64,000 nucleotides of DNA from Paraspadella gotoi. Its lineage: Eukaryota > Animalia > Chaetognatha. A program made the translations under genes and the position numbers. Positions 10,966 to 64,000 of this stretch are shown one piece after another. Location of the stretch: positions 2,570 to 66,569 of the forward strand of contig JBJCIZ010000263.1 of assembly GCA_051294375.1 (NCBI GenBank), in the 5' to 3' direction. The first letter of the stretch is position 1. Every line of letters begins with the position of its first letter. The notes under the pieces are model-generated. The model was not told the origin of the DNA. It saw only the letters and a list, made by a program, of their open reading frames with translations, and made no database searches.

Positions 10966-11567
10966 TGTCGAGAAACCAGAAAACCTGGCTCGGTGACGCC
11001 TCCTCGCGTGTCGACCCGTCAGGCTACTACTGAGTGAAACCTTGGTCTTCACCTCGCGTCTCAACCGAAGTGGGCGCGGTCTTGTCCGACGCCCCTTGAG
11101 CCGTCGCAGCCTCTGCGACCCGTTGTGAGCGTGTGGAAGTCGAAGGAGCTTGCGAAGGAACCCAAGTCCGTTGAAGGCGAGGGTGTCGAGCTTGCACGCC
11201 GTCTCTGCTAAGAGTCACGAGTCCATAGTAGAGTCTGAGGCTAGTGACATGTGGCCTCTCCGTGCCTCCTTTGCCCGCGAGTCTCTGGGCTGGCAGTGTC
11301 TCAGTGGGGCTGTCTCGTGGCCCTTGATCTAGGAAAGTTGGTGACGTAAGGATTGACATGAATGACGGAAGGACTTCATAGCCCGTAAAGAGCCGTTTGG
11401 AGACGGGTCTAGGTAACTCTCTAACTGACTGAAAAAAAGGAGAGAAATGCATACAAAAAGAGTATAGAAAAAGCAGACGAAATGTATAGAAAAGTTACGT
11501 GACAATGAAATGGAATAATTGAGCAAAATAATGAGAAAAATGAATAAAACAGCGCCATCTCTCATCA
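10966..11567 (-). repeat. BEL/Pao 3' LTR (copy 1, minus strand)
   Basis: Reverse complement runs TGATGAGAGATGGCG...GGTTTCTCGACA and matches 42754-43361 and 54149-54755. The polypurine tract is adjacent at 11568-11586. Confidence 0.93.
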
Positions 11568-12466
11568 CCCCCACCTCCGGCTTCCCTAAGGGAACCGAAA
11601 AATCGCCCTTATGCCGGGGGAAGGTGAATCGAGAGAAGATGAAAGGGAGAAGTAGAAAAAAAGGGGAAAAAATGAAATGAGGAAATAAGAAAAAGGGAAT
11701 AGAAAGGAAGTAGAATGAATAAAATAAGGAGAAAAGAGAGGGGATGGGGAAAGATTTGAAACGGAAAATGAAATGGAAAGGTGAAATGGAAAAATGTCTA
11801 TTTAATTTTAAATTCATTTTTAAATGGCCCGTCTGCAAACGTAATGATAAGATATAAAATGAAACTATAATCATTGTTATTCTTTTTACTGTAATCATTT
11901 GTACATTTTACACTGTTCACTTGAAACTATTTCTTGATCATGATTGTAAATAAAACAAACGAAATGAACTATGAATTATATGAATAGAAACCTACAAAAT
12001 TCTGTGCATCGGTTTTTAAACGTTACTGAAAGGACAGTGATACAAATTTGAGAAACTAAATTTCGTGAGATCATGAATCGAATTAAAAAACTAAAATAGA
12101 CTGAAGTAAATCTAACAAAATAAACGGACGTATCCACTAAAAAAAAATTACGACGCAAAGGTTTAACACGTTTGAATAAAAAGTCACCGAAATTTTAACT
12201 TTACTTAAAATAAAAAACGTTTGTACCTGTTTTATGTGTGAGGCTGAACTCTCTAGAAAATTGAACCGTTTGTCTTTTCAAACAGGTCAACCTCGCGATT
12301 GTCTTGTCAAACTAACGAGTTACGTTGAGGCAAACAGTCATAGCACGTAAAGCAGACTTTATTCCGTTCTGTAATTCGGTTCCGTAAACAGTTCTGGTTT
12401 TGGTCTGACATCACGTTGTGCCCGCCAACTGTCTTATCAGCGTGTCCGGGCAACAATGCGAGCTGT

Positions 12467-13275
12467 CTAAAGATCGTCGTCATCTTCCTCCATCTCCTCG
12501 CCGTCATCTTTGCCTAAAAGGGCCCGTTCTCGCTCGGGGGTAATATGGATAAGGGGGAGCGAGGAAATCCTTTCGAGCGGCGGGAGTTGCGGACAAGTCT
12601 CGCCTACGGAGACGAAGGAATCGTCTGCGGAAGATGGAGGGGTCGTCAGCGTTGTCTCTGTCAAGTTCGTTGTAGAAGCAGAAGTCGTAAATGACGTGTC
12701 AAGTGGGGTCACGGAAGAGGGGAACAACACGTCGGGGGTTTCCGTAGCATCAAGCGTGTTGTCTCTGGCGGAGGGTGTAGGGGTTACGGTTTCTTCTTCT
12801 GGGGTGGAAGCCGCGGTCTTTTCCTTGTCGGCTTTAGGAGTGGAATGTTCGTGGAAAACGATTGCAGTATTGCGGAACTCTTCCCGCACGTCTCTACAGC
12901 GAAATCCGTCCGAATCTATTGTTGGGTAGTTCTTCTCGGAGCGGGGTACAGTTGGCATTTTCTTCTTAGGAGTTGCTGGGTATTTAAATTGTTTATCCCA
13001 TTTCTTGTACTCGATGAATCGTTCTTTCTCATTCCTTGTCATTTGCCCGGATTTCTTACGGGCCTCTTGTTCGTCGAGGTGGCGTTGGTGAGCTTTTTTC
13101 AGCCTCTGCTGGTGAGAGTCCCCATTGAATCGGCTTGTCGACGTTGGCTGGGAGAGATGGTTGCTGGGGTGCAGAAGGCGCGGCCTTGCTCCTCGCTCCC
13201 TTTCCGCTCTCGGCTCCCAAATCTGATTCCGAGATGAAATCTCTTTTCCTCTTGTCGTTGACGGTCTTCTCCAGC
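12467..13275 (-). CDS. Extra ORF (ORF3), C-terminal exon, copy 1
   Basis: ...HQRHLDEQEARKKSGQMTRNEKERFIEYKKWDKQFKYPATPKKK...DDGEEMEEDDDDL*, homologous to 52440-53251. Confidence 0.7.
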
Positions 13276-13283
13276 GCCTCGAA

Positions 13284-16200
13284 GGAAAGAACGATTTACG
13301 AATTAATTGAATTCCTAAAAATGCACCTTTTAGCAGTAAAATCCGTCTACTACAGGAAAAAGAAGTCGTCGACGGCCTCGTAGCAGCGGTTGTGGCATCC
13401 AGTAAAGCTTCCACCCGCGATTCAAAACGGTGGGGGCGCGCCCGGCCTTCCAGAGATGAACAATCGAATGAATTTTCGATTCCCTGGATGACTCCGATCC
13501 CACCCAACCACCTCCAAGCCGAGAAGACGAAGACGACGCAGAAGTAAAGAGCAACCACCAAGGTTGGCTCCCACAACGCAGACGATAGATACCGGATGTG
13601 GTTATGTTGTCGCTCAACAGGCAGTACCACAGGCAAACCCTGTGGCGCCTCAACCCATCCCGCCAACCTCTATCACCCAGTCACAGGCGCAACCACCTAT
13701 GACATCAACGCTAAACCCGGGAGCGCCAATGTTTACATCGACCCCTGCTCGACCAACCACACCGCATTGTCTTTCTGTGGTCAAAACCATATGGTATGGG
13801 ATTGTGCAGGGTATCAGGCTCTTGGAGTTCAGGCAAGAGCTGATATGATTTTGGGTAGAAGAATTTGTTTCAAATGCCTGAACGGGAACCACCTAGCTAG
13901 CAAATGCAGGTTTGGAGTTCCATGCTCTTTATGTAGAGGCAATCATCATCAAACGTTACATGGGATGGCTCCGGTACGCCGATTTAATTCCTAACGAAAA
14001 ATACGCAATATCAGCCGACGACGTTTGCACAGCCACCTACTTACGCAACCCCCGCCTTCACCCCTCCTCTGCCCCCTCTTATACCCCTTCGCCCATGCCC
14101 CAGCCCCTCTACCAGGTGCCGGTGGCGGCGAACACTACAGCAACGACGGTGAACGGTGGTACCTTTGATCCAAATCAAACGATCCCCATGAAACGCGACA
14201 ACCAGCCACCCCCTGCAGTGGCTGCAGGTACGCGTCAAGTTGACTGGCGGTTGCGTCCGCCCCAGGTGAATCGACCTTTCGTCCAGTTGTACGGTCGTTG
14301 TAGAAACCGGCGGACGCAAGTGTACAACTTACGCCATGATTGATAGTGGCTGTAATCGATGTGTCTTAAAACAAAAACATTGCTGATGAATTAAAACTAG
14401 ATGTAACCCATATTCCCATGAGAATCAGGACCCTCGATAGCGATCAAACAATGCATCGGGAATGTGGCCGATTCAATGTGGAACCGCTTGATGGAACTTT
14501 TTCCATTTCCGTCCACCGCGCGATTGTGGGAAAACTGCTGACATCGGAGGACGACCGCCCCCTTGTAATGAAGATGTGGCCGGAAAACCACATCTGGAAG
14601 GGGTTTCATTCCCCAATCTCCCTGACAAGGAGGTTGGAATGCTCCTCCAGCGGGATTTGCCTATACTTGGATCGGCGGTGAAGTACGACGTGGCGCTGCA
14701 GATCAGCCAATCGCACTCATGACCGACTTTTGTTGGACCCTCGTTGGTCCGCGGCCTGGTACGGACGGGAGTGATGTCCACTGTGCCCGTATCACTGCGG
14801 AGTACATAGAGGAAGATGAGAGAAAAATCCAAGAAGATATTCGACGCTTATTTCATCGTGACTTTGTTCCGGCGCCAAGTGCAACAAAGCTTCCATCTGT
14901 TGAAGATGAGTACGCCGTGAAACAATTGGAATCAACCATTCGGTATGATGAGAAAGAAGGGCATTATTTTGTTGGTTTTACCATGGATGAGAGGTAGAGA
15001 AAAAGCGGCTGAAGTTTTGAACAGTAGAGATTCGGCAACGATGGCCCTCAATCGTTTGCAGTCTCTTATGCGCAAACTCAACCGAAATCCTGCTGACAAA
15101 AAACGAGTCAATGATGAGATGAAAAAAGTTTGTGGAGGAAGGGCACGCGCGAAAAGTCGACGTCAACAAGATCTCAAAGAAGAAACCGATTTGGACCCTT
15201 CCACTTCACGTAGTAGTACGACATGATAAAAACAAAGTACGTATTTGTCATGATGCACGCGCAAGCGTGAAAGGTAAATCTCTCAATGACGAGTTGTTGA
15301 CTGGCCCAGACTACATGACAAATCTATTGGGCGTCATGTTACGTTTTCGACGCCACAGAGTGGCATTAGCCGCGGATATTCGCGGATTTTTCCACCAGGT
15401 ATTTGTTGATGAAAACGATGTACATTGCTTCCAATATTGGTGGTTTGAGGATGATGCATGTACACAATTAGCCCTCTTTGAACTTAGGGTCCATATTTTT
15501 GGTGCAAAAAGTTCACCGCTTGTGGCTAATTATACCCTCAAAACCCACGCGAAAACGTTGGAAGGAAAATTGCCAATGAGGTTGTCGAGGCGATTATTCG
15601 CCAATTCTATGTCGACGATTTTCTCGGATCAATGCCCGACGAAGAAACCGCTCGCGAGATTAAGAAGGGCCTGACTGAAGCTCTTCGCCGCGGCGGGTTC
15701 GAGTTGACGAAATGGAAATGCTCTGTGCCAAGTGTTCTGGAAGACGAACCTGATCAAGCGACGGACACAACGAAAACGTTTACTGATGGAAACGATAATG
15801 ACGTGAAAGACGAACGACCCCGAGATAAAGTATTGGGTGTTGCATTTTCATTTTTTGATGATTATTTTTCCCCATGCATTAATCAGGAAAAGTGTTAAAA
15901 CGTTGTATTACAAAAAGACAAATTTTGTCTCTTACCGCCAGCCTGTACGATCCACTGGGCATCGTTCCCGTTTACGCTGAAAGGACGCAATTACTTCCAG
16001 CGCGCGAAGAAGCAACAGCGGACTGGGATTCCCCTCTGCCAGATGATCTCATCAAGGACTTTGATACCTGGCGTCAACAAATGCACAGAATTGGAGTCCA
16101 TCAAACTCCCGCGATGGATTGCAACAAGAGAGACGACGAACGATCCCGCGGAGCTTCACGTATTTTCGGACGCCAGCCATGATGGCTACGGCGTCACTAT

Positions 16201-18287
16201 TTATCGTAGAACTGTCCCACCTACTGACGGAAAATCTCATGTTGCCTTTATTATGTCCAGGTCCCGAGTGACGCCGGCCGATTCCTCCAAAGCGTCTCAC
16301 CACAACTCGATCCGAGATTGGATTTGACGGCGGCATGCCTCGGCGCAGAGATTCGACACACCGTGGTAGAAGAGATGACAAATGACCGGTTTGAAAAAGT
16401 AGTAATGTGGACTGATTCTGAAACGGTTTTGAAACAAATTTTTGATTGTAGTCTAAATTTGCAGCTTTCTTTAAAAAACCGTTTATCTCGAATTAGGGAA
16501 TTAACCGATGTCACGGAATGGCGCTACGTCGCGACGGATGAAAATCCCGCTGACGATTGCAGCCGAGGTCTTCCTGCTGGTGACCCAAATGGCAACGTTT
16601 TCACAATGGCCCCGACTTCTTGTGGCGCCCAGAAGCGGAGTGGCCGGAACAGAAGCTGTCCGCGAAACCACTCCCAGCAGACATCCTTACGACTGAGGCC
16701 GACGAAGATGTCGAGACGGCCACGGATAAACGCTCAAACAAAAAATCCAATGTAGAACATTGGGCCCTTCGAGTCGCACGCCAAGTTCTGACTCCCATAA
16801 AAAACTTCGTTTGATTGCGACGATGAAACACGCGATCACGAGATGGATTGAATGGAGAAAAGCATTGCGCCAAGACGCAGATGCTAGACCAAAAAAGATA
16901 AAATGGCTGACTTTAAAAGATTTAAAAGATGCAGAAATTATCCAATGCCGACGCTGCAGCTTCGCTATTTTCCAGACGAGTACCGCCAACTTCGAGAGAA
17001 AAATGTTCGCTCTCCGGATGCTAGAGCTGAGTTAACGCAGACACGTTCCCCACTGCGCCAGCTCAACCCATTCCTAGACCCTGCGGACGTTATACGAATT
17101 GGCGGCCGAATTGGGAAAGCGATTTTAGCCTATGAAACGCGACATCCAATTGTGTTACCAAAAAATGATCAAATTGTACGAGATTACATCCGCCATGTTC
17201 ACGAGCAAGAAGCGCACGCTGGCGTTGAACACGTACTCGCAAACACCGCCGCCGATTTCACATTCCTTCAATGCGCCAGGTTGCGAGGTCCGTCATTAAA
17301 CGTTGCGTCAGTTGTCAAAAGAATTTCCGACCCCCGGCGACGCAAAAGATGGGCGACATACCCGAGGACCGTCTGACGATTGGAGAACCATTCTCGGCAG
17401 TGGGCGTCGACATCTTTGGCCCATTTCACGTCGTGCATGGTGGCCGGGGCAGTGCCAAACGTTGGGTAGCTTTGTATACGTGTTTAAAATCAAGGGCTAT
17501 CCATCTAGAAGTTCTACACGACTTATCATCTTCATCCTTTATAAACTCTATAATCCGCTTTAACTCCCGTCGCCCTGGGACGAAAAAATTTTTCAGTGAT
17601 AACGGAACCAACTTACGCGGGGCGGATTCAGAGTTGAAAGCGGCAGTGGAAAAATGGAGAGAGGAGCAGGTGCATAAAAAAATGATAGAGTACGGAGTCG
17701 AATGGGTTTTTGGCCCTCCCCATGCCCCCCAATGGGGAGGAGTGTGGGAGAGATTGGTTCAATCTACCAAAAAACATTTGACTGCTATTTTGAAAAAAGA
17801 TAAACTTCAACTTGAAGTTCTGACGACGGCGTTGGCAGCGGTAGAAAGCATCCTAAATCGTCGCCCGCTGACAAGACTCAGCGAAGACCCGCGCGATTTG
17901 GAAGCCCTGACGCCAGCCCAAATTCTATACCCAAGTGTCTACCGCACATCCAGAGCGATAATGTGCCGCCGGAGTCTGTTAACGGCGACGCTCTGAGAAG
18001 TACATGGAGATTAGCGAGACGTTTAAGCGAGAATTTGGGAACGCTGGAAGCACGAGTATGTAGTAACGCTTCAACAGCGCCAAAAGTGGCAAAAAACGCA
18101 GGAAAATCTGAAAGAGGATCAATTAGTCCTAATGGTTGACGAGCTAAAATCACGAGATCAATGGCGGTTAGCGCAAGTCATTGACGCAGGTGAAGGCACG
18201 CACGTGCGACGCGTGCAAGTACGCACTGCGGACGATAAGATCTTTGAACGCGACCGAAACAAACTCGTCCCATTGGAATGTGATTGA
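13284..18287 (+). CDS. BEL/Pao Gag(C-term)-Pol polyprotein, copy 1 (many frameshifts, probably partly sequencing error)
   Basis: Three Cys/His knuckles (CxFCGQNHMVWDC, CFKCLNGNHLASKC, CSLCRGNHHQTLH). Protease YAMIDSG (~14330-14352). RT KVRICHDARA/LLTGPD/LRFR/ADIRGFFHQV/FGAKSSP/FYVDDF. Pao RNase H region YDPLG/LHVFSDAS/WTDSETVL/ENPAD. Integrase HEQEAH..CVSC, GVDIFGP, SDNGTN, GGVWERLV. Confidence 0.93.
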
Positions 18288-18558
18288 TCTAACTCATAAA
18301 AATTGTTTTCTTTTGCTGATTATTTCTGACTATGACTTGCTTCATTTGTATATATTGTAAATATATCTTGTTAAAACTCATAGTAAACGCCACTATTCTC
18401 GTCTCTTATTGCTTTGGTTTCACAATGTGATTTTGTAAAACTCTGTTTGAACAAATAAAGTGAAGATTACGTTTCTTATTATTTCTGTTTTAAATGCACG
18501 TAACTAATTTTTTTTTTTACTTTCTACCATACCCAGAGATTCTTTCTATAACATTAAA

Positions 18559-19881
18559 ATGGCGAACAAACAACATCGCAAACGAAGTTCCTCCAGCTGA
18601 ACTCTCCCGGAAGCGGCACCACCGTTGTGACGTTTCATCCAATGGCCATTGGGAGAGCCTCTGCCTGGATTGCCTTTGGACGTCGACGATTCCTACCGTC
18701 AGTATACGCCATCCTGGAGGAACTCAATTCAGAGACCATTATCAGAGAACTCCGAGCATGGGCCGAGGCTGGTGATATCACCGCCCTGAATCCCCCGCCC
18801 AGGAGCCTGAACATGATTTGGGAGTTGAGAACGGCGACGGGCCATTCCGTCAACATTTCCGACCGTGTAGATTGGGCACCCAGAAGCCCGTTAATTCAGG
18901 TCCAGATTCGATTGTTAGGGACCTACAAGGCGGGATGTATACCAACATGGATGAAGCCCGCCATGCGCTCTTCGCCGCCCTAGCTCGGCGCGATGCAACG
19001 ACAAGACGTTCTCGCAGTGTCGGACGCCCAGCCCCGTCCTCTTCTCCCGTAGCCCCTGCTGCCCCGCGCGTGCCTACGCCTTCCCCTCCTCCGCGTCCGT
19101 CGGCCCAGCCGGCGAGAAACGTGTGTAGTGAGGAAGGAGACGGAAGTGCAGAACGTGGTAAGTGGCCAGGTGGCTCCAGAGCAAACCCTGGACAACACCT
19201 TAGCCGCAAGAAAAAAGCATGATGCGCATGAAGATGCACATCGAAAAGAGACTGGCGAAACGCGCGGAATCGAATGTCAACAAGCCATCCGTAGTCTTCG
19301 TTCCATCTACAACCGTAGCTGATCAACCAGGACCGTTCCTAAAGCGCTGATCACCCCTGATCCATCACCCGCTCAACCAACGCCGATGGAACAGGACAAT
19401 CCCTTCGAGTTGCGAAACCTCCATACTTCTCCGTCCCATGTCCAGATTTCCAACGCGATCAGACGTCCTAGTGTACCAGCCGATCTCCACCAAGAGCGGG
19501 TCAGATCAAGTAGAGGAAGCAATGAAAACGACGGAACAACAAACACGAGAAATAGAAAGAGAAAGACGCAGGTCCCGTCGTGCGGCCAAGATTAACGCGA
19601 CCTATCCGCCGGCGTGCTGGGCCGCGTGCCCATGCACACGCCGAATGCAACCTCAACGCCAGTACACGACGTGACCACACCACAGAGCCAGGAGAACGGA
19701 GGTTCCTTGAAGAAATGATAAAAATATAATTCCACTTTAATAAATCAGACTAGATTAATTAACACGTTATCCCCTTCCCTTCCCTTTTCCCATTCGTATC
19801 TATTTTAGGAGAAACGATTTCAACCTGACAATTGATGAACAGGACATCAACGCTACGTTTCGCGAGGCCCCGCCCGGTTGC
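18559..19881 (+). CDS. Extra ORF (ORF3) exon 1, putative intron (19702-19808) and start of exon 2, copy 1
   Basis: AAAATGG start at 18559. Reads ...VTFHPMAIGRASAWIAFGRRRFLPSVYAILEELNSETIIRELRAW... and matches 51174 onward. Confidence 0.7.
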
Positions 19882-26418: not shown

Positions 26419-26432
26419 AAAGAGAGGAGAAT

Positions 26433-27480
26433 GCCGTCGTCAGAACTTCAGAGTTGAGGGTTATTTTTGTCAGGCAGTATCAATGTTTGTAATTGAGAGA
26501 AACCAAATCTTTCCCACACTCCTCCCCATGGGCAGGGAGGGAGGGCCAAATCAGCCATTCGACTTACCGTACTACTATCATTTTTTTTATGCACTTGCTC
26601 CTCTCTTCCATTTTTTCACTGCCGCTTTCCAACTCTGAATCCGCCCCCGTAAGTTGGTTCCTTATCACTGAAAATTTTTTTCGATCCCAGGGCGATTATA
26701 AGAGTATCATAAAGGATGAAGATGCAATAAATCGTGGTAGAACTTCTAGATGGATAGCCCTTGATTAAACACGTATACAAAGCTACCCAACGTTTGGCAC
26801 TGGCCCCGGCCACTCATGCACGACGTGAAATGGCCAAAGATGTCGACGGCCACTGCGAGAATGTTCTCCAATCGTCAGACAGGTCCTCGGGTATGTCGGC
26901 CTATCTTTTGCATCGCGGGGGTCGGAAATTCTTTTTAGACAACTGACGCATCGTTTAATGACGGACCTCGCAACCCTTGCGCATTGAAGGAATATGAAAT
27001 CCGGCGCCGGATGTTTGCGAGTACGTGTTCAACGCCAGTGCGCTTCTTGCTCGTGAAATGGCGGATGTAATCTCGTACAATTTGATCATTTTTTGGTAAA
27101 GCGACAATTGGATGTCGCGTTTCATCAGGCTAAATCTCTTGTTTCCTCAATCGGTCTCAGTAAATTTGATATATTTGATTCGTCGCGGAAGACGTCATGA
27201 AATGGGTGAGCTTGGCGCAGTGGGGAATCGTGATCTGCATTAAACTCAGATCTATGCATTCCTCCGAGAGCGAAACATTTATTTAATCCTCTCAAAAGTG
27301 TGTGCGGGTACTCACTGTCTGGAAAAAAATACCAGAAGCTGCAAGCGCATCGAATATCCATTGAGGAGATAATTTTCTGCATCTTTAAAAAATCTTTAAA
27401 TCAGCCATTTTATCCTTTATTGGTCTATGTTCAAATCTGCGTCTTGGCGCAATGAAATTTACTCCAAATTACAATCCATC
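26433..27480 (-). mobile_element. Inverted BEL/Pao integrase fragment
   Basis: Reverse complement of ~16850-17830 (SAKRWVALYTCL; HEQEAH region), joined directly to the plus-strand RT of copy 2. Confidence 0.85.
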
Positions 27481-29469: not shown

Positions 29470-29645
29470 GCCGTAGCCATCATGGCTGGCATCACGAAAA
29501 TACATGAGCTCCGCGGGATCGTTGTGTTTCTTGCTGTGCATCCATCGCGGGAGCTTGATGGACTCCATTCTGGCATTGTGTTACGCCAGGTTTGAAAGTC
29601 CTGATGAGATCATCTGGCAGCGTGGAATTCCACAGTGCCGCTGAT
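29470..29645 (-). mobile_element. Short BEL/Pao RNase H fragment (ELHVFSDASHDGYG region)
   Basis: CCGTAGCCATCATGGCTGGC...GAGCTCCGCGGGATCGT is the reverse complement of ~16020-16192. Confidence 0.8.
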
Positions 29646-29685
29646 TGCTTATCGTTCGAGNNNNNNNNNNNNNNNNNNNNNNNNN

Positions 29686-35030: not shown

Positions 35031-35039
35031 CAACTGCCC

Positions 35040-42753: not shown

Positions 42754-43361
42754 TGATGAGAGATGGCGCTGTTTTATTCATTTTTCTCATTATTTGCTCA
42801 TTTATTCCATTTCATTGTCACGTGACTTTTCTATACATTTCGTCTGCTTTTTCTATACTCTTTTTGTATGCATTTCTTTCCTTTTTCAGTCAGTTAGAGA
42901 GTTACCTTGACCCGTCTCCAAACGGCTCTTTACGGGCTATGAAGTCCTTCCGTCATTCATGTCAGCCCTTACGTCACCAACTTTCCTAGATCAAGGGCCA
43001 CGAGACAGCCCACTGAGACACTGCCAGCCCAGAGACTCGCGGGCAAAGGAGGCACGGAGAGGCCACATGTCACTAGCCTCAGACTCTACTATGGACTCGT
43101 GACTCTTAGCAGAGACGGCGTCGCAAGGCTCGACACCCTCGCCTTCAACGGACTTGGGTTCCTTCGCAAGCTCCTTCGACTTTCCACACCGCTACAACGG
43201 GGTCGCAGAGGCTGCGACGGCTCCGAAGGGGCGTCGGACAAGACCGCGCCCACTTCCGGTTGAGACGCGAGGTGAAGACCAAGGTTTCACTCAGTAGTAG
43301 CCTGACGGGTCGACACGCGAGGAGGCGTCACCGAGACCAGGTTGGTTCTGGTTTCTCGACA
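42754..43361 (+). repeat. 5' LTR of copy 3
   Basis: TGATGAGAGA...TTTCTCGACA. The termini form an imperfect inverted repeat (TG..GAGA). Confidence 0.93.
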
Positions 43362-43514
43362 TATATAACGTATAGCCTTCATATATTATTGTACTTCGTC
43401 ACATACTGCGTGTCTTGGTTTAAATTACTCACAGCGGCATTGTAAGTTATGTGTATCCATTTTTTTTTCTTTTTTAATCGAATTACTATTATTTTACCTC
43501 AAACCCCCCTCGTG

Positions 43515-46500
43515 ATGGCTTCTGCACCGGAGAACGATGGACCTTCAGGAAGAGGAGGAAGCAGTGGCTCCAACAGAATTTGCATCCCAGATGGAGACCC
43601 TCTTCCACACGTTTCAACGACTCCATGGTACAGCGGAAGAAACCGGATCTCCGCCAGATCGTATGTCGCCAATAGCATGAGGGAGGCGTTAGAGGAAAGC
43701 TTCAAATTGCTCAGCAGATAACCGCCAGCAGTGATTATGTACCAAACCCCTCTCTGACTTCGGCGATGGAGAGAACGCAGGAGATCCTCCAAACAATCCC
43801 CCGATATCCTGCGACAACCTTACGCAGTTTTCTAATTGACGGAATAGGAACGTTCTGAATATACCTACTACCATTACGCAACAACCACTCCGCCCCTCCT
43901 CCCCTTTGATGGCATGATTAACCCTAATTTGGGAGAGCACTGGCACGAAGATCGAGTGGACGAATACTCCAACGGTGGGGGGAGCAGCGACAGCTACGAG
44001 ATTAGATGAACCTGTCGCATCTAGAACAGGTCTTCCGTATCAACGGCTTTCCCACCTTCGTACCGCTTTTTTAGACCCTTCGACCATAGCTACGACAGGA
44101 AGGGAATCGATGTCGTGGATCATTACCCCGACAGTCGTACTCCGTCGCACACACGGGCACTTCAACGGCCTCCGGCCCTCGACACGAGGATCCACTGGAG
44201 GACCGCCAACTGCGACGACGACAACGTCAACGACGACAACGGCTTCTGAATCAACCTCGGCCTCGCAGCCGACAGTTTTTACGTCACTCTACCTACTCCA
44301 CAGGTTTTGGAGGCTACTAGGAGAGGGATGGACGAAAATATTACGACAAGCAGCTGAACAGCATACCATTCGAGTCAATACCGCTGAGTACTCCACGAAC
44401 AGAGCGACTACAATATAACCGCGCTGCTCGGATAATGCACTCGACGCAAGAACGTGATATAGCTCAGCGAGCTACTGGACAACGAAGATCAACAACCTAA
44501 GAGAGCTTGAAGCAGTTCGTACAAATGCGCCGACGGAAAGAGTCAGCTGCCATTAGAATGCCACCGACTCGCGCACGACCATTAGCGTCTTCTAACGGCT
44601 AATGCGCCGGGGGAGAACTTTGACAATCTCACGGAGGATTTGCACCTCCTGCGGATCGTTCCGCCAGAGTAACCTTTTCGGCGCAAAACAGCCCGTCGGC
44701 TTCGCACGTTACCTCCCTAGGCGAATGCCTCTCTGCCATTGAAGCCTTCACGCAACAGCAGAACCAAGCTCAGGCAGAAGAGAGAGAACAAAGGCGCGGA
44801 GAGAGATCAAAATGAGTAGGAATTTTGGGATGAACAAAACCAAGAAAGAGCACGGATGGCTCAGTACTTCTCTGCACAGAAAGAGAAAGAGATCGGATGG
44901 CGAGAACTCTAGCCGAGATGGCTGCACAATAGAAAGGATGAGGTTGAATCCGGCGGGACAACCGCCGATGCAAGAGCAGCCACCGGTTACTCCTCAGAAC
45001 ATCGCCAGCATTTGAAACCCCTCCTGAACAAAGAATGCCGCCGAGACAAAGTAGAGAACCACTACCGGCGATCGCGATCCGACAACGCAAACGTCAAATA
45101 CAAAGCTTGACCGACTATATACGGCGGTTAGAACAAGAGTTGGGCGAGAAAGACGCAGCGCGCGACAGGACACCTACAGCAGAAGGTGGGGAGAAGCAAT
45201 GCAGCAGGATCGATACCTGAGGCCCCTCTCGATTACCTGCCCGCGCCAGCAGTCCCGCCCACTGCTAACCCACAGTTTGAGAGATATTTGTATTCACAGT
45301 CAACCGAATCAACCATCCGAATGTTGAAGATCTTCGCCCTGAGAAGTCTCATGAGCGAAGATGCCAAAAATAAGGTTGTTTTTAAAATTCATATGCAACA
45401 ATGGGAATCTGCAATGTCACAACCAGGCGTTACTGACCAGATGCGTCACCAAGAATTACGCTTCTGGTTTGGCGGTCTCGCAAACTGAAATTGCAGAAAT
45501 ATTTCCACCGACAAGATTATGCAGCAGCGGTCACCGAAGCTATACACATGCTGCGGAAAAGAGTTTGGCCGACCCGATGCTTCCCTCATGAGATGCTTCG
45601 AGATTGCCTCGCTGGCGGGAAAGCCACCGAAGCGAACGACATCGATGAGGCGATTACCCGGCTTGAGAACATCGTTGGGATTGCGGAAGCGAAAGGCCGG
45701 ATCCGCGATTTAAACAGAGATACGGTCATTGCGGAGATTCTTGAACAAAGTTTCCCCAATGGAAAGAAAAATTCGCTGAGATCAACTCCGAGAGTTTGTA
45801 TTTATCAGGAAGAAAAAGAACGATTTACGAATTAATTGAATTCCTAAAAATGCACCTTTTAGCAGTAAAATCCGTCTACTACAGAAAAGAAGTCGTCGAC
45901 GGCCTCTGGTAGCAGCGTTGTGGCATCCAGTAAAGCTCCACCCGCGATTCAAAACGGTGGGGGCGCGCCCGCCTTCCAGAGATGAACAATCGAATGAATC
46001 TTTCGATTCCCTGGATGACTCCGATCCACCCAACCACCTCCAAAGCCGAGAAGACGAAGACGACGCAGAAGTAAAGAGCAACCACCAAGGTTGGCTCCCA
46101 CAACGCAGACGATAGATACCGGATGTGGTTATGTTGTCGCTCAACAGGCAGTACCACAGGCAAAACCCTGTGGCGCCTCAACCCATCCCGCCAACCTCTA
46201 TCACCCAGTCACAGGCGCAACCACCTATGACATCAACGCTAAACCCGTGAGCGCCAATGTTTACATCGACCCCTGCTCGACCAACCACACCGCATTGTCA
46301 TTTCTGTGGTCAAAACCATATGGTATGGGATTGTGCAGGGTATCAGGCTCTTGGAGTTCAGGCAAGAGCTGATATGATTTTGGGTAGAAGAATTGTTTCA
46401 AATGCCTGAACGGGAACCACCTAGCTAGCAAATGCAGGTTTGGAGTTCCATGCTCTTTATGTAGAGGCAATCATCATCAAACGTACATGGGATGGCTCCG

Positions 46501-49500
46501 GTACGCGATTTAATCCTACGACAAATACGCAATATCAGCCGACGACGTTTGCACAGCCACCTACTTACGCAACCCCGCCTTCACCCCTCCTCTGCCCCCT
46601 CTTATACCCCTTCGCCATGCCCCAGCCCCTCTACCAGTCGGTGGCGGCAACACTACAGCAACGACGGTGAACGGTGGTACCTTTGATCCAAATCAAACGA
46701 TCCCCATGAACGCGACAACCACGCCACCCCCTGCAGTGGCTGCAGGTACGGCGTCAAGTTGACTGGCGGTTGCGTCCGCCCCAGGTGAATCGACCTTTCG
46801 TCCAGTTGTACCGGTCGTTGTAGAAACCGCGGGACGCAAGTGTACAACTTACGCCATGATTGATAGTGCTGCTGTAATCGATGTCTGGTTCTTACAAACA
46901 AAACATTGCTTAAATTGTATATGCCCAATTTTTTTTAAATACTAGATGTTCAATTCTACCGTAATATATCCCATGAGAATCTCAGGACCTCTATAGGCGA
47001 TCAAACAAATGCATCGGGATGTGGCTTCATGGATTTGCAGATGGGTGGAACCGCTTGATGAACTTTTCCATTTCCCGTCCCAAGATACACCTGATCGACT
47101 GATTTTTGGGAAAACTGCTGACATCGGAGCGACGCACCGCCCCTTTGTAATAGAAGATGTGGCCGAAAACCACATCTGTATTTCGGGTTTTCATTCCCCA
47201 ATCTCCCTGACAAGGAGGTTGGAATTGCTTCCTCCCAGCTGGATTTGCCTATACTTTGGATCGGCGGTGAATGTACGACGTGGCGTGCAGATCAGCCAAT
47301 CGCACTCATTGGACCGACTTTGGTTGGACCCTCGTTGGTCCGCGCACTGGTACGGACGTGGAAGTGATGTCCACGTGTGGCCCGTATCACTGGTAGTTAC
47401 ATTAGAGGAATGATGAAGAAAAATCCAAGAAGATATTCGACGCTTAGTTTCATCGTGACTTGTTCGTTGCGCCAAGTGCAAACAGAAGCTTCCATCTGTT
47501 GAAGATGAGTACGCCGTAAGAAACAATTGGAATAACCATCGGTATGATGAGAAAGTTAAGGCATTATTTTGTGGTTTACCATGGATGAGAGTAGGAGTAA
47601 ATAAAGCAGACTGCAGTTTTGAAACAGTAGAGATTCGGCAACGATGGCCTCAATTCGTTTGCAGTCTCTTTATGCGCAAAGCTACAACCGAAAATCCTGC
47701 TGACAAAAAACGAGAGTCAATGATGAGGATTGATAAAAGTATTGATGGAGGAAGGGCTACGCCAAAGTAGTCGACGTCAACAAGATCTCAAAGAAAAAAC
47801 CGATTAGACCTTCCACTTTCACGTTATAGTAGACGACATGATAAAACAAAGTACGTATTTGTTCATGATGCACGCGAAGCGTGAAAGGTAAACTACTCTC
47901 AATGACGATTGTTGTTGACTGGCCCAGACTACATGACAAATCTATTGGGCGTCATGTTACGTTTCGACGCCACAGAGTGGCATTAGCCGCGGATATTCGG
48001 GATTTTTCCACCAGGTATTTGTTGATGAAAACGATGTACATTGCTTCCAATTAGGTGGTTTGAGGATGATGCATGTACACAATAGCCCTCTTTGAACTTA
48101 GGGTCATATTTTTGGTGGCAAAAAGTTCACCGCTTGTGGCTATTATACCCTCAAAACCCCGCGAAAACGTTGGAAGGAAATTGCCAATGGAGGTTGTCGA
48201 GGCGATTATTCGCCAATTCTATGTCGACGATTTTCTCGGATCAATGCCCGACGAAGAAACCGCTCGCGAGATTAAGAAGGGCCTGATGAAGCTCTTCGCC
48301 GCGGCGGGTTCGAGTTGACGAAATGGAAATGCTCTGTGCCAAGTGTTCTGGAAGACGAACCTGATCAAGCGACGGACACAACGAAAACGTTTACAGATGG
48401 AAACGATAATGACGTGAAAGACGAACGACCCGGATAAAGTATTGGGTGTTGCATTTTCATTTTTTGATGATTATTTTTTCCCATGCATTAATCAGGAAAA
48501 AGTGTTAAAACGTTGTATTACAAAAAGACAAATTTTGTCTCTTACCGCCAGCCTGTACGATCCATGGGCTCGTTTCGCCGTTTACGCTGAAAGGACGCAA
48601 TTACTTCCAGCGCGCGAACGAAGCAACAGCGGACTGGATTCCCCTCTGCCAGATGATCTCATCAAGGACTTTGATACTGGCGTCAACAAATGCCAGAATT
48701 GGAGTCCATCAAACTCCCGCGATGATTGCAACAAGAGAGACGACGAACGATCCCGCGGAGCTTCACGTATTTTCGGACGCCAGCCATGAGGCTACGGCGT
48801 CACTATTTATCGTAAACTGTCCCACCTACTGACGGAAAATCTCATGTTGCCTTTATTATGTCCAGTCCCGAGTGACGCCGGCCGATTCCTCCAAAGCGTC
48901 TCACCAAACTCGATCCCGAGATTGGAGTTGACGGCGGCATGCCTCGGCGCAGAGATTCGACACACCGTGGTAAAGAGATGACAATGACCGGTTTGAAAAA
49001 GTAGTAATGTGGACTGATTCTGAACGGTTTTGAAACAAATTTTGATTGTAAGTCTAAATTTGCAGCTTTTCTTTAAAAAACCGTTTATCTCGAATTAGGG
49101 AATTAACCGATGTCACGGAATGGCGCTACGTCGCGACGGATGAAAATCCCGCTGACGATTGCAGCGAGGTCTTCCTGCTGGTGACCCAAAATGGCAACGT
49201 TTTCACAATGGCCCGACTTCTTGTGCGCCGCAGAAGCGGAGTGGCCGGAACAGAAGCTGTCCGCGTTGAAAACCATCCCAGCAGACATCCTTACGACTGA
49301 GGCCGACGAAGATGTCGAGACGGCCACGGATAACGCTCAATACAAAAAATCAATGTAGAACATTTGGGCCCATTCCGAGTCGCCACGCGCAATGGTTCCT
49401 GACTCCCATAAAAAACTTCGTTTGATTGCGACGATGAAACACGCGATAGAGATGATTGAATGGAGAAAAGCATTGCGCAAGACGCAGATGCTAGACCAAA

Positions 49501-50904
49501 AAGATAAATGGCTGACTTTAAAGATTTAAAAGATGCTAAGAAATTATCCAATGCCGAGCGCTGCAGCTTCGCTATTTTTCCAGACGAGTACCGCCAACTT
49601 CGAGAGAAAAATGTTCGCTCTCCGGATGCTAGAGCTGAGTTAACGCAGACACGTTCGCCACTGCGCCAGCTCAACCCATTACCTAGACCTCTGCGGACGT
49701 TATAACGAATTGGCGGCCGAATTGGGAAAAGCGAATTTAGCCTAATGAAACGCGACATCCAATTGGTGTTACCAAAAAATGATCAAATTGTACGAGATTA
49801 CATCCGCCTATGTTCACGAGCAAGAAGCGCACGCTGGCGTTGAACACGTACTCGCAAAACACCCGCCGCCGATTTCACATTCCTCAATGCGACCAGGTAT
49901 TGCGAGGTCCGTCATTAAACGTTGCGTCAGTTGTCAAAAGAATTTCCGACCCCCGGCACGCAAAAGATGGGCGACATACCCGAAGGACCGTCTGACGATT
50001 GGAGAACCATTCTCGGCAGTGGGCGTCGACATCTTTGGCCCATTTCACGTCGTGCATGGTGGCCGGGGCAGTGCCAAACGTTGGGTAGCTTTGTATACGT
50101 GTTTAAAATCAAGGGCTATCCATCTAGAAGTTCTACACGACTTATCATCTCATCCTTTATAAACTCTATAATCCGCTTTAACTCCCGTCGCCCTGGGACG
50201 AAAAAATTTTTCAGTGATAACGGAACCAACTTACGCGGGGCGGATTCAGAGTTGAAAGCGGCAGTGGAAAAATGGAGAGAGGAGCAGGTGCATAAAAAAA
50301 TGATAGAGTACGGAGTCGAATGGGTTTTTGGCCCTCCCATGCCCCCCAATGGGGAGGAGTGTGGAGAGATTGGTTCAATCTACCAAAAAACATTTGACTG
50401 CTATTTTGAAAAAAGATAAACTTCAACTTGAAGTTCTGACGACGGCGTTGGCAGCGGTAGAAAGCATCCTAAATCGTCGCCCGCTGACAAGACTCAGCGA
50501 AGACCCGCGCGATTTGGAAGCCCTGACGCCAGCCCAAATTCTATACCCAAGTGTCTACGCACCATCCAGAGCGATAATCGTGCCGCCGGAGTCTGTTAAC
50601 GGCGACGCTCTGAGAAGTACATGGAGATTAGCGAGACGTTTAAGCGAAGAATTTTGGAACGCTGGAAGCACGAGTATGTAGTAACGCTTCAACAGCGCCA
50701 AAAGTGGCAAAAAAACGCAGGAAAATCTGAAAGAGGATCAATTAGTCCTAATGGTTGACGAGCTAAAATCACGAGATCAATGGCGGTTAGCGCAAGTCAT
50801 TGACGCAGGTGAAGGCACGCACGTGCACGCGTGCAAGTACGCACTGCGGACGATAAGATCTTTGAACGCGACCGAAACAAACTCGTCCATTGGAATGTGA
50901 TTGA
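43515..50904 (+). CDS. BEL/Pao Gag-Pol polyprotein, copy 3 (frameshifted in this assembly)
   Basis: ATG GCT TCT GCA CCG start. Knuckles ~46295-46490, protease YAMIDS ~46850, IIRQFYVDDFLG ~48225, integrase GVDIFGP/SDNGTN/LNRRPL. Stop after ...LECD. Confidence 0.93.
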
Positions 50905-51118
50905 TCTAACTCATAAAAATTGTTTTCTTTTGCTGATTATTTCTGACTATGACTTGCTTCATTTGTATATATTGTAAATATATCTTGTTAAACTCATAGT
51001 AAACGCCACTATTCTCGTCTCTTATTGCTTTGGTTTCACAATGTGATTTTGTAAAACTCTGTTTGAAACAAATAAAGTGAAGATTACGTTTCTTATTATT
51101 TCTGTTTTAAATGCACGT

Positions 51119-51151
51119 AACTAATTTTTTTTTACTTTCTACCATACCCAG
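51119..51151 (+). promoter_or_regulatory. Candidate 3' splice acceptor upstream of ORF3
   Basis: Branch-like AACTAAT, then TTTTTTTTACTTTCTACCATACC, then CAG, 22 nt before AAAATGG. The same site is at 18502-18536. Confidence 0.5.
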
Positions 51152-51173
51152 AGATTCTTTCTATACAATTAAA

Positions 51174-53251
51174 ATGGCGAACAAACAAACATCGCAAACG
51201 AAGTTCCTCCAGCTGAACTCTCCGGAAGCGGCACCACCGTTGTGACGTTTCATCCAATGGCCATTGGGAGAGCCTCTGCCTGGATTGCCTTTGGACGTCG
51301 ACGATTCCTACCGTCAGTATACGCCATCCTGGAGGAACTCAATTCAGAGACCATTATCAGAGAACTCCGAGCATGGGCCGAGGCTGGTGATATCACCGCC
51401 CTGAATCCCCCGCCCAGGAGCCTGAACATGATTTGGGAGTTGAGAACGGNNNNNNNNNNTTCCGTCAACATTTCCGACCGTGTAGATTGGGCACCCAGAA
51501 GCCCCGTTAATTCAGGTCCAGATTCGATTGTTAGGGACCTACAAGGCGGGATGTATACCAACATGGATGAAGCCCGCCATGCGCTCTTCGCCGCCCTAGC
51601 TCGGCGCGATGCAACGACAAGACGTTCTCGCAGTGTCGGACGCCCAGCCCCGTCCTCTTCTCCCGTAGCCCCTGCTGCCCNNNNNNNNNNTACGCCTTCC
51701 CCTCCTCCGCGTCCGTCGGCCCAGCCGGCGAGAAACGTGGTAGTGAGGAAGGAGACGGAAGTGCAGAACGTGGTAAGTGGCCAGGTGGCTCCAGAGCAAA
51801 ACNNNNNNNNNNNNNNNNNNNNNNNNNCCTGGACAACACCTTAGCCGCAAAGAAAAAGGCATGATGGCATGAAGATGCACATCGAAAAGAGACTGGCGAA
51901 ACGCGCGGAATCGAATGTCAACAAGCCATCCGTAGTCTTCGTTCCATCTACAACCGTAGCTGATCAACCACCGACCGTTCCTAAAGCGCTGATCACCCTG
52001 ATCCATCACCCGCTCAACAACGCCGATGGAACAGGACAATCCTTGAGTTGCGAAACCTCCATACTTCTCCGTCCCATGTCCAGATTTCAACGCGATCAGA
52101 CGTCCTAGTGTACCAGCCGATCTCCACCAAGAGCTGGTCAGATCAAGTAGAGGAAGCAATGAAAACGACGGAACAACAAACACGAGAAATAGAAAGAGAA
52201 AGACGCAGGTCCCGTCGTGCGGCCAAGATTAACCGCGACCTATCCGCCGGCGTGCTGGGCCGCGTGCCCATGCACACGCCGAATGCAACCTCAACGCCAG
52301 TACACGACGTGACCACACCCACAGAGCCAGAGAACGGAGGTTAAAAAACCACGACTAGATTAATTGTAGTATGAGAACGATTTCAACCTGACAATTGATG
52401 AACAGGACATCAACGCTACGTTTCGCAGGCCCCGCCCGGTTGGCTGGAGAAGACCGTCAACGACAAGAGGAAAAGAGATTTCGTCTCGGAATCAGATTCG
52501 GGAGCCGAGAACGGAAACGGCGCGAGGAGCAAGGCCGCGCCTTCTGCACCCCAGCAACCGTCTCTCCCAGCCAACGTCGACAAGCCGATTCAATGGGGAC
52601 TCTCACCAGCAGAGGCTGAAAAAGCTCACCAACGCCACCTCGACGAACAAGAGGCCCGTAAGAAATCCGGGGCAAATGACAAGGAATGAGAAAGAACGAT
52701 TCATCGAGTACAAGAAATGGGATAAACAATTTAAATACCCGGCAACTCCAAAGAAGAAAAGGCCAACTGTACCCCGCTCCGAGAAGAACTACCCAACGAT
52801 AGATTCGGACGGATTCCGCTGTAGAGACGTGCGGGAAGAGTTCCGCAATACTGCAATTGTTTTCCACGAACATTCCACTCCTGAAGCCGACAAGGAAAAG
52901 ACCGCGGCTTCCACCCAGAAGAAGAAACCGTAACTCCTACACCCTCCCCCCCGGAGACAACACGCTTGATGCTACGGAAACCCCCGACGTGTTGTTCCCC
53001 TCTTCCGTGACCCCACCTGACACGTCATTTACGACTTCTGCTTCTACAACGAACTTGACAGAGACAACGCTGACGACCCCTCCATCTTCCGCAGACGATT
53101 CCTTCGTCTCCGTATGCGAGACTTGTCCGCACCTACCGCCGCTCGAAAGGATTTCCTCGCTCCCCCTTATCCATATTACCCCCAGCGAGAACGGGCCCTT
53201 CTAGGCGAAGATGACGGCGAGGAGATGGAGGAAGACGACGACGATCTTTAA
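51174..53251 (+). CDS. Extra ORF (ORF3), putatively two exons, ~680 aa, unknown function
   Basis: Reconstructed from copies at 18559-19881, 12467-13275, 63591-64000 and this one. It is a GC-richer coding-like block between AT-rich spacers and ends DDGEEMEEDDDDL*. Confidence 0.72.
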
Positions 53252-54130
53252 AAAGCTCGCATTGTTGCCCGGACACGCTGATAAGACAGTTGGACGGGCA
53301 CAACGTGATATCAGACCAAAACCGGAACTGTTTACGGAACCGAATTACGGAACAACGGAATAAAGTCTGCTTTACGTGCTATGACTGTTCGCCTCAACGT
53401 AACTCGTTGGTTTGACAAGACAATCGCGAGGTTGACCTGTTTGAAAAGACAACAGTTCAATTTTCTAGAGAGCTCAGCCTCACACGTAAAACAGGTACAA
53501 ACGTTTTTTATTATAAGTAAAGTTAAAATATCGGTGACTTTTTATTCAAACGTGTTAAACCTTTGCGTCGTAATTGTTTTTTAGTTGATACGTCTGTTTA
53601 TTTTGTTAGATTTACTTCAGTCTAATTTAGTTTTTTAATTCGTTTCATGATCACACGAAATTTAGTTTCTTAAATTCGTATCACTGTCCTTTCAGTAACG
53701 TTTAAAAACCGACGCACAGAATTTCGTAGGTTTCTATTCATACAAGTTATTTCGTTCGTTTTATTGACAATCATGATCAAGAAATAGTGAACAGTGTAAA
53801 ATGTACAAATGATTACAGTAAAAAGAATAACAATGATTATAGTTTCATTTTATATCTTATCATTACGTTTGCAGACGGGCCATTAAAAAAAAAAAAAAAA
53901 AATTAATATAAAATTAAATAGACATTTTTTCCATTCATCTTTCCATTTCATTATTTCCGTTTCAAATCTTTCCCCATCCCCTCTTTTTTTTTTTTTTCTC
54001 ATTTTATTCATTCTACTACTTTCTATTCCCTTTTCTTATTTCCTCATTCATTTTTCCCTTTTTCTACTTCTCCTTTCATCTTCTCTCGATTCACCTTCCC
54101 CGGCATAAGGGCGATTTTTCCGGTTCCCTT

Positions 54131-54148
54131 AGGAAGCCGGAGGTGGGG
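54131..54148 (+). promoter_or_regulatory. Polypurine tract (plus-strand primer)
   Basis: AGGAAGCCGGAGGTGGGG immediately precedes the TG of the 3' LTR. It is also present in copy 1. Confidence 0.75.
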
Positions 54149-54755
54149 TGATGAGAGATGGCGCTGTTTTATTCATTTTTCTCATTATTTTGCTCATTAT
54201 TTCCATTTCATTGTCACGTGACTTTTCTATACATTTCGTCTGCTTTTCCTATACTCTTTTTGTATGCATTTCTTTCCTTTTTCAGTCAGTTAGAGAGTTA
54301 CCTTGACCCGTCTCCAAACGGCTCTTTACGGGCTATGAAGTCCTTCCGTCATTCATGTCAGCCCTTACGTCACCAACTTTCCTAGATCAAGGGCCACGAG
54401 ACAGCCCACTGAGACACTGCCAGCCCAGAGACTCGCGGGCAAAGGAGGCACGGAGAGGCCACATGTCACTAGCCTCAGACTCTACTATGGACTCGTGACT
54501 CTTAGCAGAGACGGCGTCGCAAGGCTCGACACCCTCGCCTTCAACGGACTTGGGTTCCTTCGCAAGCTCCTTCGACTTTCCACACCGTACAACGGGGTCG
54601 CAGAGGCTGCGACGGCTCCGAAGGGGCGTCGGACAAGACCGCGCCACTTCCGGTTGAGACGCGAGGTGAAGACCAAGGTTTCACTCAGTAGTAGCCTGAC
54701 GGTCGACACGCGAGGAGGCGTCACCGAGACCAGGTTTGGTTCTGGTTTCTCGACA
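54149..54755 (+). repeat. 3' LTR of copy 3
   Basis: TGATGAGAGATGG...GGTTTCTCGACA, near-identical to the 5' LTR. Confidence 0.93.
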
Positions 54756-55299
54756 TATTCATATATCATATATATGATTCATCATCTACCTCTTCCGTTA
54801 CATTACGATTTCTAACTTTTTTTAAAGTTGTTACTCACAAGCGGCATTTCAAGTTGTACCATTTCCTATCGAGTATCGCTCTCCTTTTTTTCCTTCGTCC
54901 CGTTTTTTCCCATTTTCTCCTTCCATCTTTCCCTTTTTTTTCCCCCGTTTTTTTCTTCCCTTCCTTTATTTCTCCCTTATCTTTCATGTTCTCAAGTTCC
55001 CTGTTTCCCTATTTTACTTTCTTTTCCTTAAACATCTTTCTCATTTTGGCGAACCTTTTCCTCTCTCCCATTCCCTTTCTTTCTCTCCTTAATTCTCACC
55101 ATTCCTCTACTTCTGCTTCACCATTTTCCTTTCTTTTTCTTTTCTTATAAATTCCCTTTCTTTTACGTCTCTTCTCTCGTTTCATCATCCACTTCTTTCC
55201 CTTCCTTCCATTTCCCCTCCAGATTTTTTTCGACTCGAAAATGACCATGATGCTTCCCGGGGCCTCGTATGTCTTTCTCTTTTCGCGCTAATTGGAGGC

Positions 55300-63312: not shown

Positions 63313-64000
63313 AGACTTTTTATTCAAACGTGTTAAACCTTTGCGTCGTAATTGTTTTTTAGTTGATACGTCTGTTTATTTTGTTAGATTTACTTCAGTC
63401 TAATTTAGTTTTTTAATTCGTTTCATGATCACACGAAATTTAGTTTCTTAAATTCGTATCACTGTCCTTTCAGTAACGTTTAAAAACCGACGCACAGAAT
63501 TTCGTAGGTTTCTATTCATACAAGTTCATTTCGTTCGTTTTATTGACAATCATGATCAAGAAATAGTGAACAGTGTAAAANNNNNNNNNNGAGGAAGCAA
63601 TGAAAACGACGGAACAACAAACACGAGAAATAGAAAGAGAAAGACGCAGGTCCCGTCGTGCGGCCAAGATTAACCGCGACCTATCCGCCGGCGTGCTGGG
63701 CCGCGTGCCCATGCACACGCCGAATGCAACCTCAACGCCAGTACACGACGTGACCACACCCACAGAGCCAGGAGAACGGAGGTTCCTTGAAGAAATGATA
63801 AAAATATAATTCCACTTTAATAAATCAGACTAGATTAATTAACACGTTATCCCCTTCCCCTTCCCTTTTCCCATTCGTATCTATTTTAGGAGAAACGATT
63901 TCAACCTGACAATTGATGAACAGGACATCAACGCTACGTTTCGCGAGGCCCCGCCCGGTTGGCTGGAGAAGACCGTCAACGACAAGAGGAAAAGAGATTT
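63313..64000 (+). mobile_element. BEL/Pao fragments: 3' UTR piece (63313-63580), then ORF3 exon 1 end, intron and exon 2 start (63591-64000)
   Basis: 63313-63580 matches ~53536-53800. 63591-64000 matches 19513-19880 and 52150-52480. The order is reversed across a 10-N gap. Confidence 0.88.

Follow-up and report, generated by a model that had tools for sequence, protein, structure and literature searches.

A BEL/Pao retrotransposon of the arrow worm Paraspadella gotoi with a long third gene of predicted non-Env type in the env position

Among the LTR retrotransposons of C. elegans, Cer1 is a Ty3/gypsy element, and Cer7 reportedly carries accessory ORFs. The CERV protein of Cer1 (517 aa) is made from a spliced mRNA, carries a candidate NLS, is without homologues beyond the nematodes and is needed for export of Cer1 gRNA (excerpts of PMC10309623). 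According to the available parts of the publications concerned, accessory ORFs are already known in other LTR groups as well (PMC10309623, PMC5408684, PMC7264820, bioRxiv 2025.03.14.642691): the extra ORFs of bdelloid and plant elements encode GDSL esterases, DEDDy exonucleases or small membrane proteins, or are mostly antisense (PMC5408684, PMC7264820), and those of the MDG1 group are 70–110 aa long and lie upstream of gag, sORF2 having a transmembrane segment (bioRxiv 2025.03.14.642691).

The ICTV profile of the Belpaoviridae gives gag, pol and an env-like gene only (PMC8742986), in agreement with the premise of the original prediction that extra 3′ ORFs of BEL/Pao elements are Env-like. Env-like third genes are likewise the only ones mentioned in the BEL/Pao literature consulted (PMC8742986; excerpts of PMC3118150, PMC554778, PMC13524379 and PMC2774666), and a 2009 survey, in the part available, places accessory genes in retroviruses, caulimoviruses and two Ty3/gypsy clades, not in Bel/Pao (PMC2774666). 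A literature search with thin coverage, whose phrase matching missed the slash-form ‘BEL/Pao’, found no non-Env BEL/Pao accessory gene, and the excerpts of PMC6431247, PMC8556966 and PMC6238403 contain nothing on such genes.

We analysed a stretch of 64,000 nt of P. gotoi DNA (assembly GCA_051294375.1, contig JBJCIZ010000263.1, positions 2,570 to 66,569; ‘the window’), in which the original prediction had placed a BEL/Pao element with a large non-Env ORF behind pol. The features to which we refer are as follows (copy A is the element at 42754–54755).

42754..43361, + strand: 5′ LTR, TG...CA, 608 nt; 98.5% identical to the 3′ LTR (self-comparison)
43442..43447, + strand: candidate leader splice donor GTAAGT, 73 nt upstream of the gag ATG at 43515
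43515..50904, + strand: gag-pol, frame-broken in the assembly; Cys-His knuckles, DSA, YVDD, DAS, integrase, DUF5641 tail
50905..51173, + strand: AT-rich spacer with AATAAA at 51071, branch-like CTAAT, T-tract and acceptor AG ending at 51151
51174..52339, + strand: third gene, coding part 1, ∼380 codons
52340..52371, + strand: likely intron, collapsed in copy A (108 nt in copy D, 107 nt in copy B)
52372..53251, + strand: third gene, coding part 2, ∼290 codons
53252..54148, + strand: 3′ UTR, AATAAA at 53359, polypurine tract at its end
54149..54755, + strand: 3′ LTR, 607 nt (self-comparison and public contigs)
10966..13275, − strand: copy C, with coding part 2, 3′ UTR and LTR of a diverged copy
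13286..19880, + strand: copy B, with pol, spacer, coding part 1 and intron; stops at an assembly gap
63591..64000, + strand: copy D, a fragment spanning the intron

The element and its copies in the window

The element that carries the third gene is a BEL/Pao LTR retrotransposon of 12,002 nt from LTR to LTR, as had been predicted. Its identity follows from the LTRs, from the PR-RT-RH order of the pol motifs (DSA at 46862, YVDD at 48220, DAS at 48776) and from a match of copy B to Pfam PF05380 (Peptidase_A17; E = 4.6e-14, 53 bits against a cut-off of 22.3); the match to PF18701 (DUF5641; E = 1.1e-4) falls just under the cut-off. Among the 120 integrase matches listed, most come with PF18701 and PF05380. 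Two Cys-His knuckles were found in gag (at 46296 and 46394), and a purine-rich run, present in a public contig too, ends at 54148 before the 3′ LTR. Both LTR lengths lie inside the Belpaoviridae range of 0.2–1.2 kb; the total length exceeds the range of 4.2–10 kb, which is descriptive and no bar to membership. Inspection by eye of copies A and E, whose leader is unreliable in the window, revealed no primer-binding site for tRNA-Arg or tRNA-Gly; the public contigs carry other letters in this leader stretch. A target-site duplication was looked for around the element and not found, and an Rfam search gave no matches. Just past the 3′ LTR, positions 54756–54900 are partially like the 5′ leader, suggesting that another copy follows in tandem or that the assembly was joined there.

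The assembly of the window is noisy, containing patches of N as well as indels dispersed along it, and in none of its copies there does the third gene keep an unbroken frame. The block is covered in all four public sequencing runs examined (from three studies; 11 runs listed), whose contigs differ from the window by no substitution in coding part 1 and by one or two in part 2. Seven of the 12 indel rows listed (30 rows in total) fall in the ORF, at or beside the frame switches, so the frame breaks are probably assembly errors. The third gene lies with pol inside the same pair of LTRs, and a single short-read contig of 7,121 nt (run X2) spans pol, spacer, ORF and 3′ UTR; this linkage is thus not a scaffolding artefact. 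In X2 the element has a contig depth of 63 and its flank of 9–17, which hints, as a rough guide and not as a copy number, at several near-identical copies; the family looks young and multi-copy.

According to the original prediction, all copies that reach this region carry the block. The copies do show it, but their independence had been overstated: what separates copies B and D from copy A is nearly all indels, and, being otherwise near letter-identical, they are not independent evidence, which leaves copy C (∼3–4% diverged from copy A, with the second coding part only) as the one diverged copy.

Several other observations were made in the window. Within 10966–26419 the order of the adjoining pieces C, B and E is scrambled, and copy B ends exactly where copy C begins, which points to mis-assembly. 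A second BEL/Pao family, 67–81% identical to the first, occupies 26430–34114 (− strand) and is broken off before its 3′ region. The stretch 35000–36890 has 72–77% GC, unlike its surroundings, and is possibly a poor read or foreign DNA. Fragments reminiscent of a Penelope-type reverse transcriptase, with no Pfam match, lie at 6111–6828 (− strand). Finally, 8731–10800 holds a 395-nt tandem duplication and a minisatellite block with units of 18–19 nt.

Coding constraint and character of the third gene product

The predicted block is where it was said to be, with the pol stop at 50902–50904, an ATG at 51174, a stop at 53249–53251 and 897 nt from there to the 3′ LTR. GC content rises from 27% in the spacer to 56% in coding part 1 and 54% in part 2, and is 34% in the 3′ UTR.

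Coding part 2 is under purifying selection. Copies A and C differ by 23 substitutions over 792 sites, and 12 of these are silent, against 6.8 expected with each change placed at random (P = 0.017; the silent count includes a TAA/TAG swap at the stop, and five bases beside an indel were left out). The resulting pN/pS of 0.28, an estimate from one pair of copies with 23 changes, is not the value of ∼1 that would have spoken against a coding block. Non-silent changes are also rarer than changes in the 3′ UTR (1.8% of sites versus 4.1%, 22/541; Fisher P = 0.018), and the stop is kept as TAA or TAG. The silent signal is strongest at 52670–52935 (six of eight changes) and absent in the Ser/Thr block (one of five). 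For part 1, a diverged contig of 2,127 nt (X2 record 9, its upstream loose end found also in X1) matches 52236–52277 with five differences; past the DNA match, read by hand, it continues in frame (TPKHTSTPVF versus TPNATSTPVH) with seven of ten residues kept, four of them through third-base changes. An alternative frame at 52950–53180, more folded-looking, was ruled out by stops in both copies.

Coding part 1 begins with a globular-like N-terminal region of ∼140 aa, followed by a Pro-rich linker, an Arg-rich cluster and a conserved DLSAGVLGRVPMH..TSTPV stretch; part 2 contains KRKR, a predicted helical hairpin, FIEYKKWDKQFKYP, KKKR, a Ser/Thr-rich stretch and an acidic tail with 12 D/E among the last 20 residues. 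The motifs quoted in the original prediction were all present in the sequence. Its folded N-terminal domain fared less well: the composition is indeed globular-like (23% ILVM, 7.7% aromatic), but single-sequence AlphaFold modelling reached a pLDDT of only 37.7. The product carries 13 S/T-P sites and, as sequence patterns, the basic clusters RRR, KRKR and KKKR; a leucine-rich export-signal pattern in its loose form has four matches, which are uninformative. The product is likely a mostly unstructured, basic, acid-tailed protein, and the basic clusters, taken alone, would place it in the nucleus.

Judged by its sequence, the product is not Env-like. The highest Kyte-Doolittle 19-mer is 1.03 in copy A and 1.37 across four copies in any forward frame; the unbroken pieces (553 positions) hold three Cys and three N-x-S/T sites; and hydropathy together with reading of the sequence gave no hydrophobic core after the ATG that could serve as a signal peptide. 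The predicted lack of signal peptide, transmembrane segment and Cys pattern thus agrees with these values. The Pfam and PDB sequence searches gave no match to the F, gB or Gc fusogens; the structure models were not of a quality or size that would allow their folds to be compared.

The product had been assigned to no recognised family, and the Pfam, PDB, protein and metagenome searches that we ran yielded no match either. The N-terminal piece matched none of 1046 candidates among longer proteins, none of 1.84 billion protein representatives (50%), where the host's own proteins seem absent, none of 95 pattern matches in metagenome contigs and nothing in PDB, with an Atlas best of 0.84; coding part 2 had no match in Atlas or PDB and none among 15 pattern matches in viral contigs. 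For the third ORF, Pfam at E up to 5 gave nothing but sub-threshold matches, and tblastn of its pieces against 80 BEL/Pao loci reached E = 0.28 at best, with two of the seven queries out of frame. These blanks say little about novelty, since the searches did not return the query itself either. In the database searches of Pfam, PDB and the 50% representatives, no match to Rev or CERV appeared. AlphaFold modelled the coding part 2 piece as a two-helix hairpin (helix 20–35 in pLDDT blocks of 78–93), for which Foldseek returned no match and VIA a best Z of 3.4, not a meaningful fold match. A likeness of the hairpin to the end of an HMG-box was considered and dropped for want of Pfam support. A short LSxGVLG match of the third ORF to P0123, of the L004 family described below, is within chance by a rough estimate.

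Splice signals and related elements

YAG acceptor-like sites were ranked by pyrimidine content. The site ending at 51151, 22 nt before the ATG, is first of 260 in copy A; in copy B this site and the one at the end of a 108-nt GT..AG segment are joint first of 149, and the third site tied with them is without the branch-like motif that the other two have. The segment, at 63782–63889 in copy D, starts with AG/GT and has 31.5% GC between flanks of 58% and 50%; its removal keeps both coding parts in one frame, and the unspliced frame stops after nine codons. In all four public runs this place takes up 122 letters, as copy D would give, against 45 in the window. A candidate leader donor, GTAAG, is found 73 nt upstream of the gag ATG in copies A and E (at 21394 in the latter), both of them noisy; the donor of the segment, GTTCCT, is weak. 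With one of the two best acceptor-like sites directly upstream of the ATG and the other closing the 108-nt segment, the third gene is likely spliced and expressed from a sub-genomic RNA. In its predicted form this layout is similar to that of retroviruses, where a donor in the leader is paired with a 3′ acceptor, and has an internal intron in addition.

Neither of the two predicted splice sites is seen joined in any public contig; the runs behind these contigs are not confirmed as RNA. Run X8, RNA by guess only, contains the intron unspliced; that it misses the upstream flank covered by X2 fits RNA, low-depth DNA or another individual. Inside coding part 1 there is also a consensus donor, GTAAGT at 51773, out of phase with the second acceptor; the two joined would give a short product with the N-terminal region only.

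Integrase trees were built from ∼230 residues; 143 sequences had been collected, of which the first tree includes 117, and the second tree has 52 sequences. They place the window element in a clade of 26 members together with 21 metagenome proteins and four metagenome loci (L001–L004), with FastTree support of 0.999 and 0.997; the same clade was recovered in a fast IQ-TREE run. Downstream DNA was surveyed in those loci, 20 of 80, that extend 1.5 kb or more past the stop of pol; three are in the clade and 17 outside it. Two of the three other clade members with downstream DNA carry long, basic, acid-tailed third ORFs: L003, which with L002 makes up one element, has 464 codons behind an acceptor, and L004 has 612. 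Neither has a Pfam match or a segment above 1.42 hydropathy, and both have 66–71% disorder-promoting residues, 17–18% Lys/Arg and acidic tails. The third member, L001, has no such ORF in ∼1.4 kb after pol. Outside the clade a basic, acid-tailed third ORF was found in none of the 17 loci: nine are without an ORF of 200 codons, five run into another Gag and three have other ORFs. This contrast between clade and non-clade loci is suggestive and not a statistical test, since it involves three elements and kin share traits. Among the BEL elements outside the clade, one (L007:7321–8457) has a 379-codon ORF after pol, with no Pfam match at E up to 0.01, that is reminiscent of a Schlafen/AlbA-like domain.

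A top-ranked acceptor-like site precedes the third ORF in both relatives (joint first of 114 in L003, first of 92 in L004), and L003 has a GTAAGA donor upstream, in phase with the third-ORF acceptor. The L003 ORF contains four R-S-[KR]-S-P repeats; that of L004 is Arg-rich and is 56% identical in two other proteins. No homology was detected among the three clade ORFs (hhalign probability 0.2–1.4%), so they have diverged beyond recognition or were born separately. At L003:4231–4687, a short acidic candidate for an upstream exon ends at the GTAAGA donor, with 80-nt tandem repeats just upstream. In the L004 family (L004:2510–2968, P0122–P0124) the reading frame of the third ORF begins within the last part of pol and has no stop for ∼135–150 codons, as far as the Met with which the aligned region starts in all three members, which share residues; a recoding or overlapping-frame signal is possible there.

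Possible roles and comparison with described elements

The reading that we prefer, while still doubting it somewhat more than we trust it, is that the third gene encodes a nuclear regulator, like HIV Rev or CERV, of the processing and export of the element's own RNA; among orphans made from a spliced LTR-element mRNA, CERV is the tested precedent for such a role (PMC10309623). The leader donor would be spliced to the acceptor 22 nt before the ATG; removal of the 108-nt segment would give a product of ∼670 aa, and its retention behind the weak donor a shorter one of ∼390 aa. The basic clusters would carry the protein into the nucleus, where its Arg-rich segments could bind the element's RNA, and full-length RNA with its intron would then reach the cytoplasm for Gag-Pol synthesis and packaging. 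The element's full-length RNA would contain the donor, both strong acceptors and the intron, and would nonetheless have to leave the nucleus unspliced. Drosophila gypsy, an envelope-splicing element, exports unspliced RNA with no known Rev, so that the splice layout in itself does not call for a Rev-like protein. Taken together, the predicted splice layout and the Arg-rich and RS-repeat motifs somewhat favour an RNA-level regulator over the roles of anti-silencing, transactivation and chromatin targeting that the original prediction had named.

Those roles make up an alternative that we regard as possible but unlikely, in which the N-terminal domain would sit on the LTR or on chromatin and the acidic tail would recruit the transcription machinery or displace histones. 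The acidic tail, the basic clusters and the 13 S/T-P sites would fit it, and DNA methylation in arrow worms, which is aimed mainly at LTR retrotransposons, would favour a counter-measure (excerpts of PMC12460157). On the other hand, Pfam and PDB searches found no DNA- or chromatin-binding domain, and the RS repeats of L003 suggest RNA and not DNA.

It is improbable that the protein is a helper of the particle or the pre-integration complex, entering particles together with Gag as a chaperone of nucleic acids or a factor for nuclear import. A basic, disordered, S/T-P-rich composition would suit such a helper, and the frame that opens within the end of pol in the L004 family would allow fusion to Pol; the window ORF, however, is set off from pol by a 269-nt AT-rich spacer and has an acceptor and an ATG of its own.

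We give little credence to an operon-like transcript in which the two coding parts would be independent cistrons, with cleavage of each at an AATAAA and spliced-leader trans-splicing at both acceptors. AATAAA does occur ∼80 and ∼70 nt before the two acceptors (copy B), the unspliced frame stops nine codons into the 108-nt segment, and operons of this kind, whose gaps are shorter than 250 bp, occur in arrow worms (excerpts of PMC12460157). Yet AATAAA is common in AT-rich DNA, the 108-nt segment is an in-frame GT-AG unit, and coding part 2 is without an in-frame ATG for ∼100 codons, which the published spliced leaders, as far as Table 3 of PMC2481426 (available in part) lists them, do not supply.

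That the block is host coding sequence picked up by the element, or cargo in decay that does nothing for it, is very unlikely. The intron-like segment, the clade member without such an ORF and the weak constraint on the Ser/Thr block would be in keeping with this reading, whereas purifying selection between element copies and the same position and composition in two relatives argue against it, as does the lack of a host homologue of the N-terminal piece among the 1.84 billion representatives, where the host's proteins seem absent. A highly diverged Env would suit a gene that follows pol and a splice acceptor and precedes the 3′ LTR, but is scarcely credible for a product whose 19-mers do not exceed 1.03 in copy A, whose N-terminus is unlike a signal peptide and whose 553 readable positions hold three Cys and three N-x-S/T sites.

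If the preferred role of an RNA regulator is extended to the relatives, an unnamed BEL/Pao branch might be ‘complex’ in the way of lentiviruses, with env replaced by spliced, fast-evolving, disordered RNA regulators that keep their position, composition and acidic tail but have lost all sequence resemblance; the third gene of the window element may itself give several isoforms through weak and strong donors. We hold this broader scheme to be rather less probable than not. The branch with third ORFs has been seen here only in metagenomes and in this host. A clade-wide non-Env third gene would, if true, mean an additional level of regulation in the LTR family that has been studied least, and would offer a second animal case, after Cer1, for asking how unspliced RNA is exported or host silencing evaded. 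The question can be tested, because the family looks young and multi-copy.

With Tas, Cer7 and roo of BEL/Pao the element shares the LTR-gag-pol organization, the PR-RT-RH-IN order, Peptidase_A17 and a third gene between pol and the 3′ LTR (PMC8742986; excerpts of PMC554778 and PMC13524379). Unlike theirs, the third gene here has a likely intron and, judged by sequence, a product lacking a membrane anchor, a signal peptide and an ectodomain rich in Cys; at 12.0 kb the element is longer than the BEL/Pao elements of 4.2–10 kb listed by ICTV (PMC8742986). The ORF3s of bdelloid elements and the additional ORFs of plant elements are, in the available parts of PMC5408684 and PMC7264820, also genes between pol and the 3′ LTR other than a canonical Env; ours differs from them as a sense, low-complexity, likely nuclear orphan in BEL/Pao. 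The sORF2 and FAST-like proteins of the MDG1 group (excerpts of bioRxiv 2025.03.14.642691) are, like the third gene, encoded by accessory ORFs of envelope-less LTR retrotransposons, but the third gene is long, lies downstream of pol and is without a transmembrane segment. The searches gave no link to CERV or Rev in sequence or fold; the exons of CERV overlap gag, and CERV has three folded domains and a Cys loop, unlike the product described here (excerpts of PMC10309623). What the two would have in common, going by the same excerpts, is orphan status, a length of several hundred residues, origin from the spliced mRNA of an LTR element (predicted in our case), a candidate NLS and S/T-P sites (PMC10309623).
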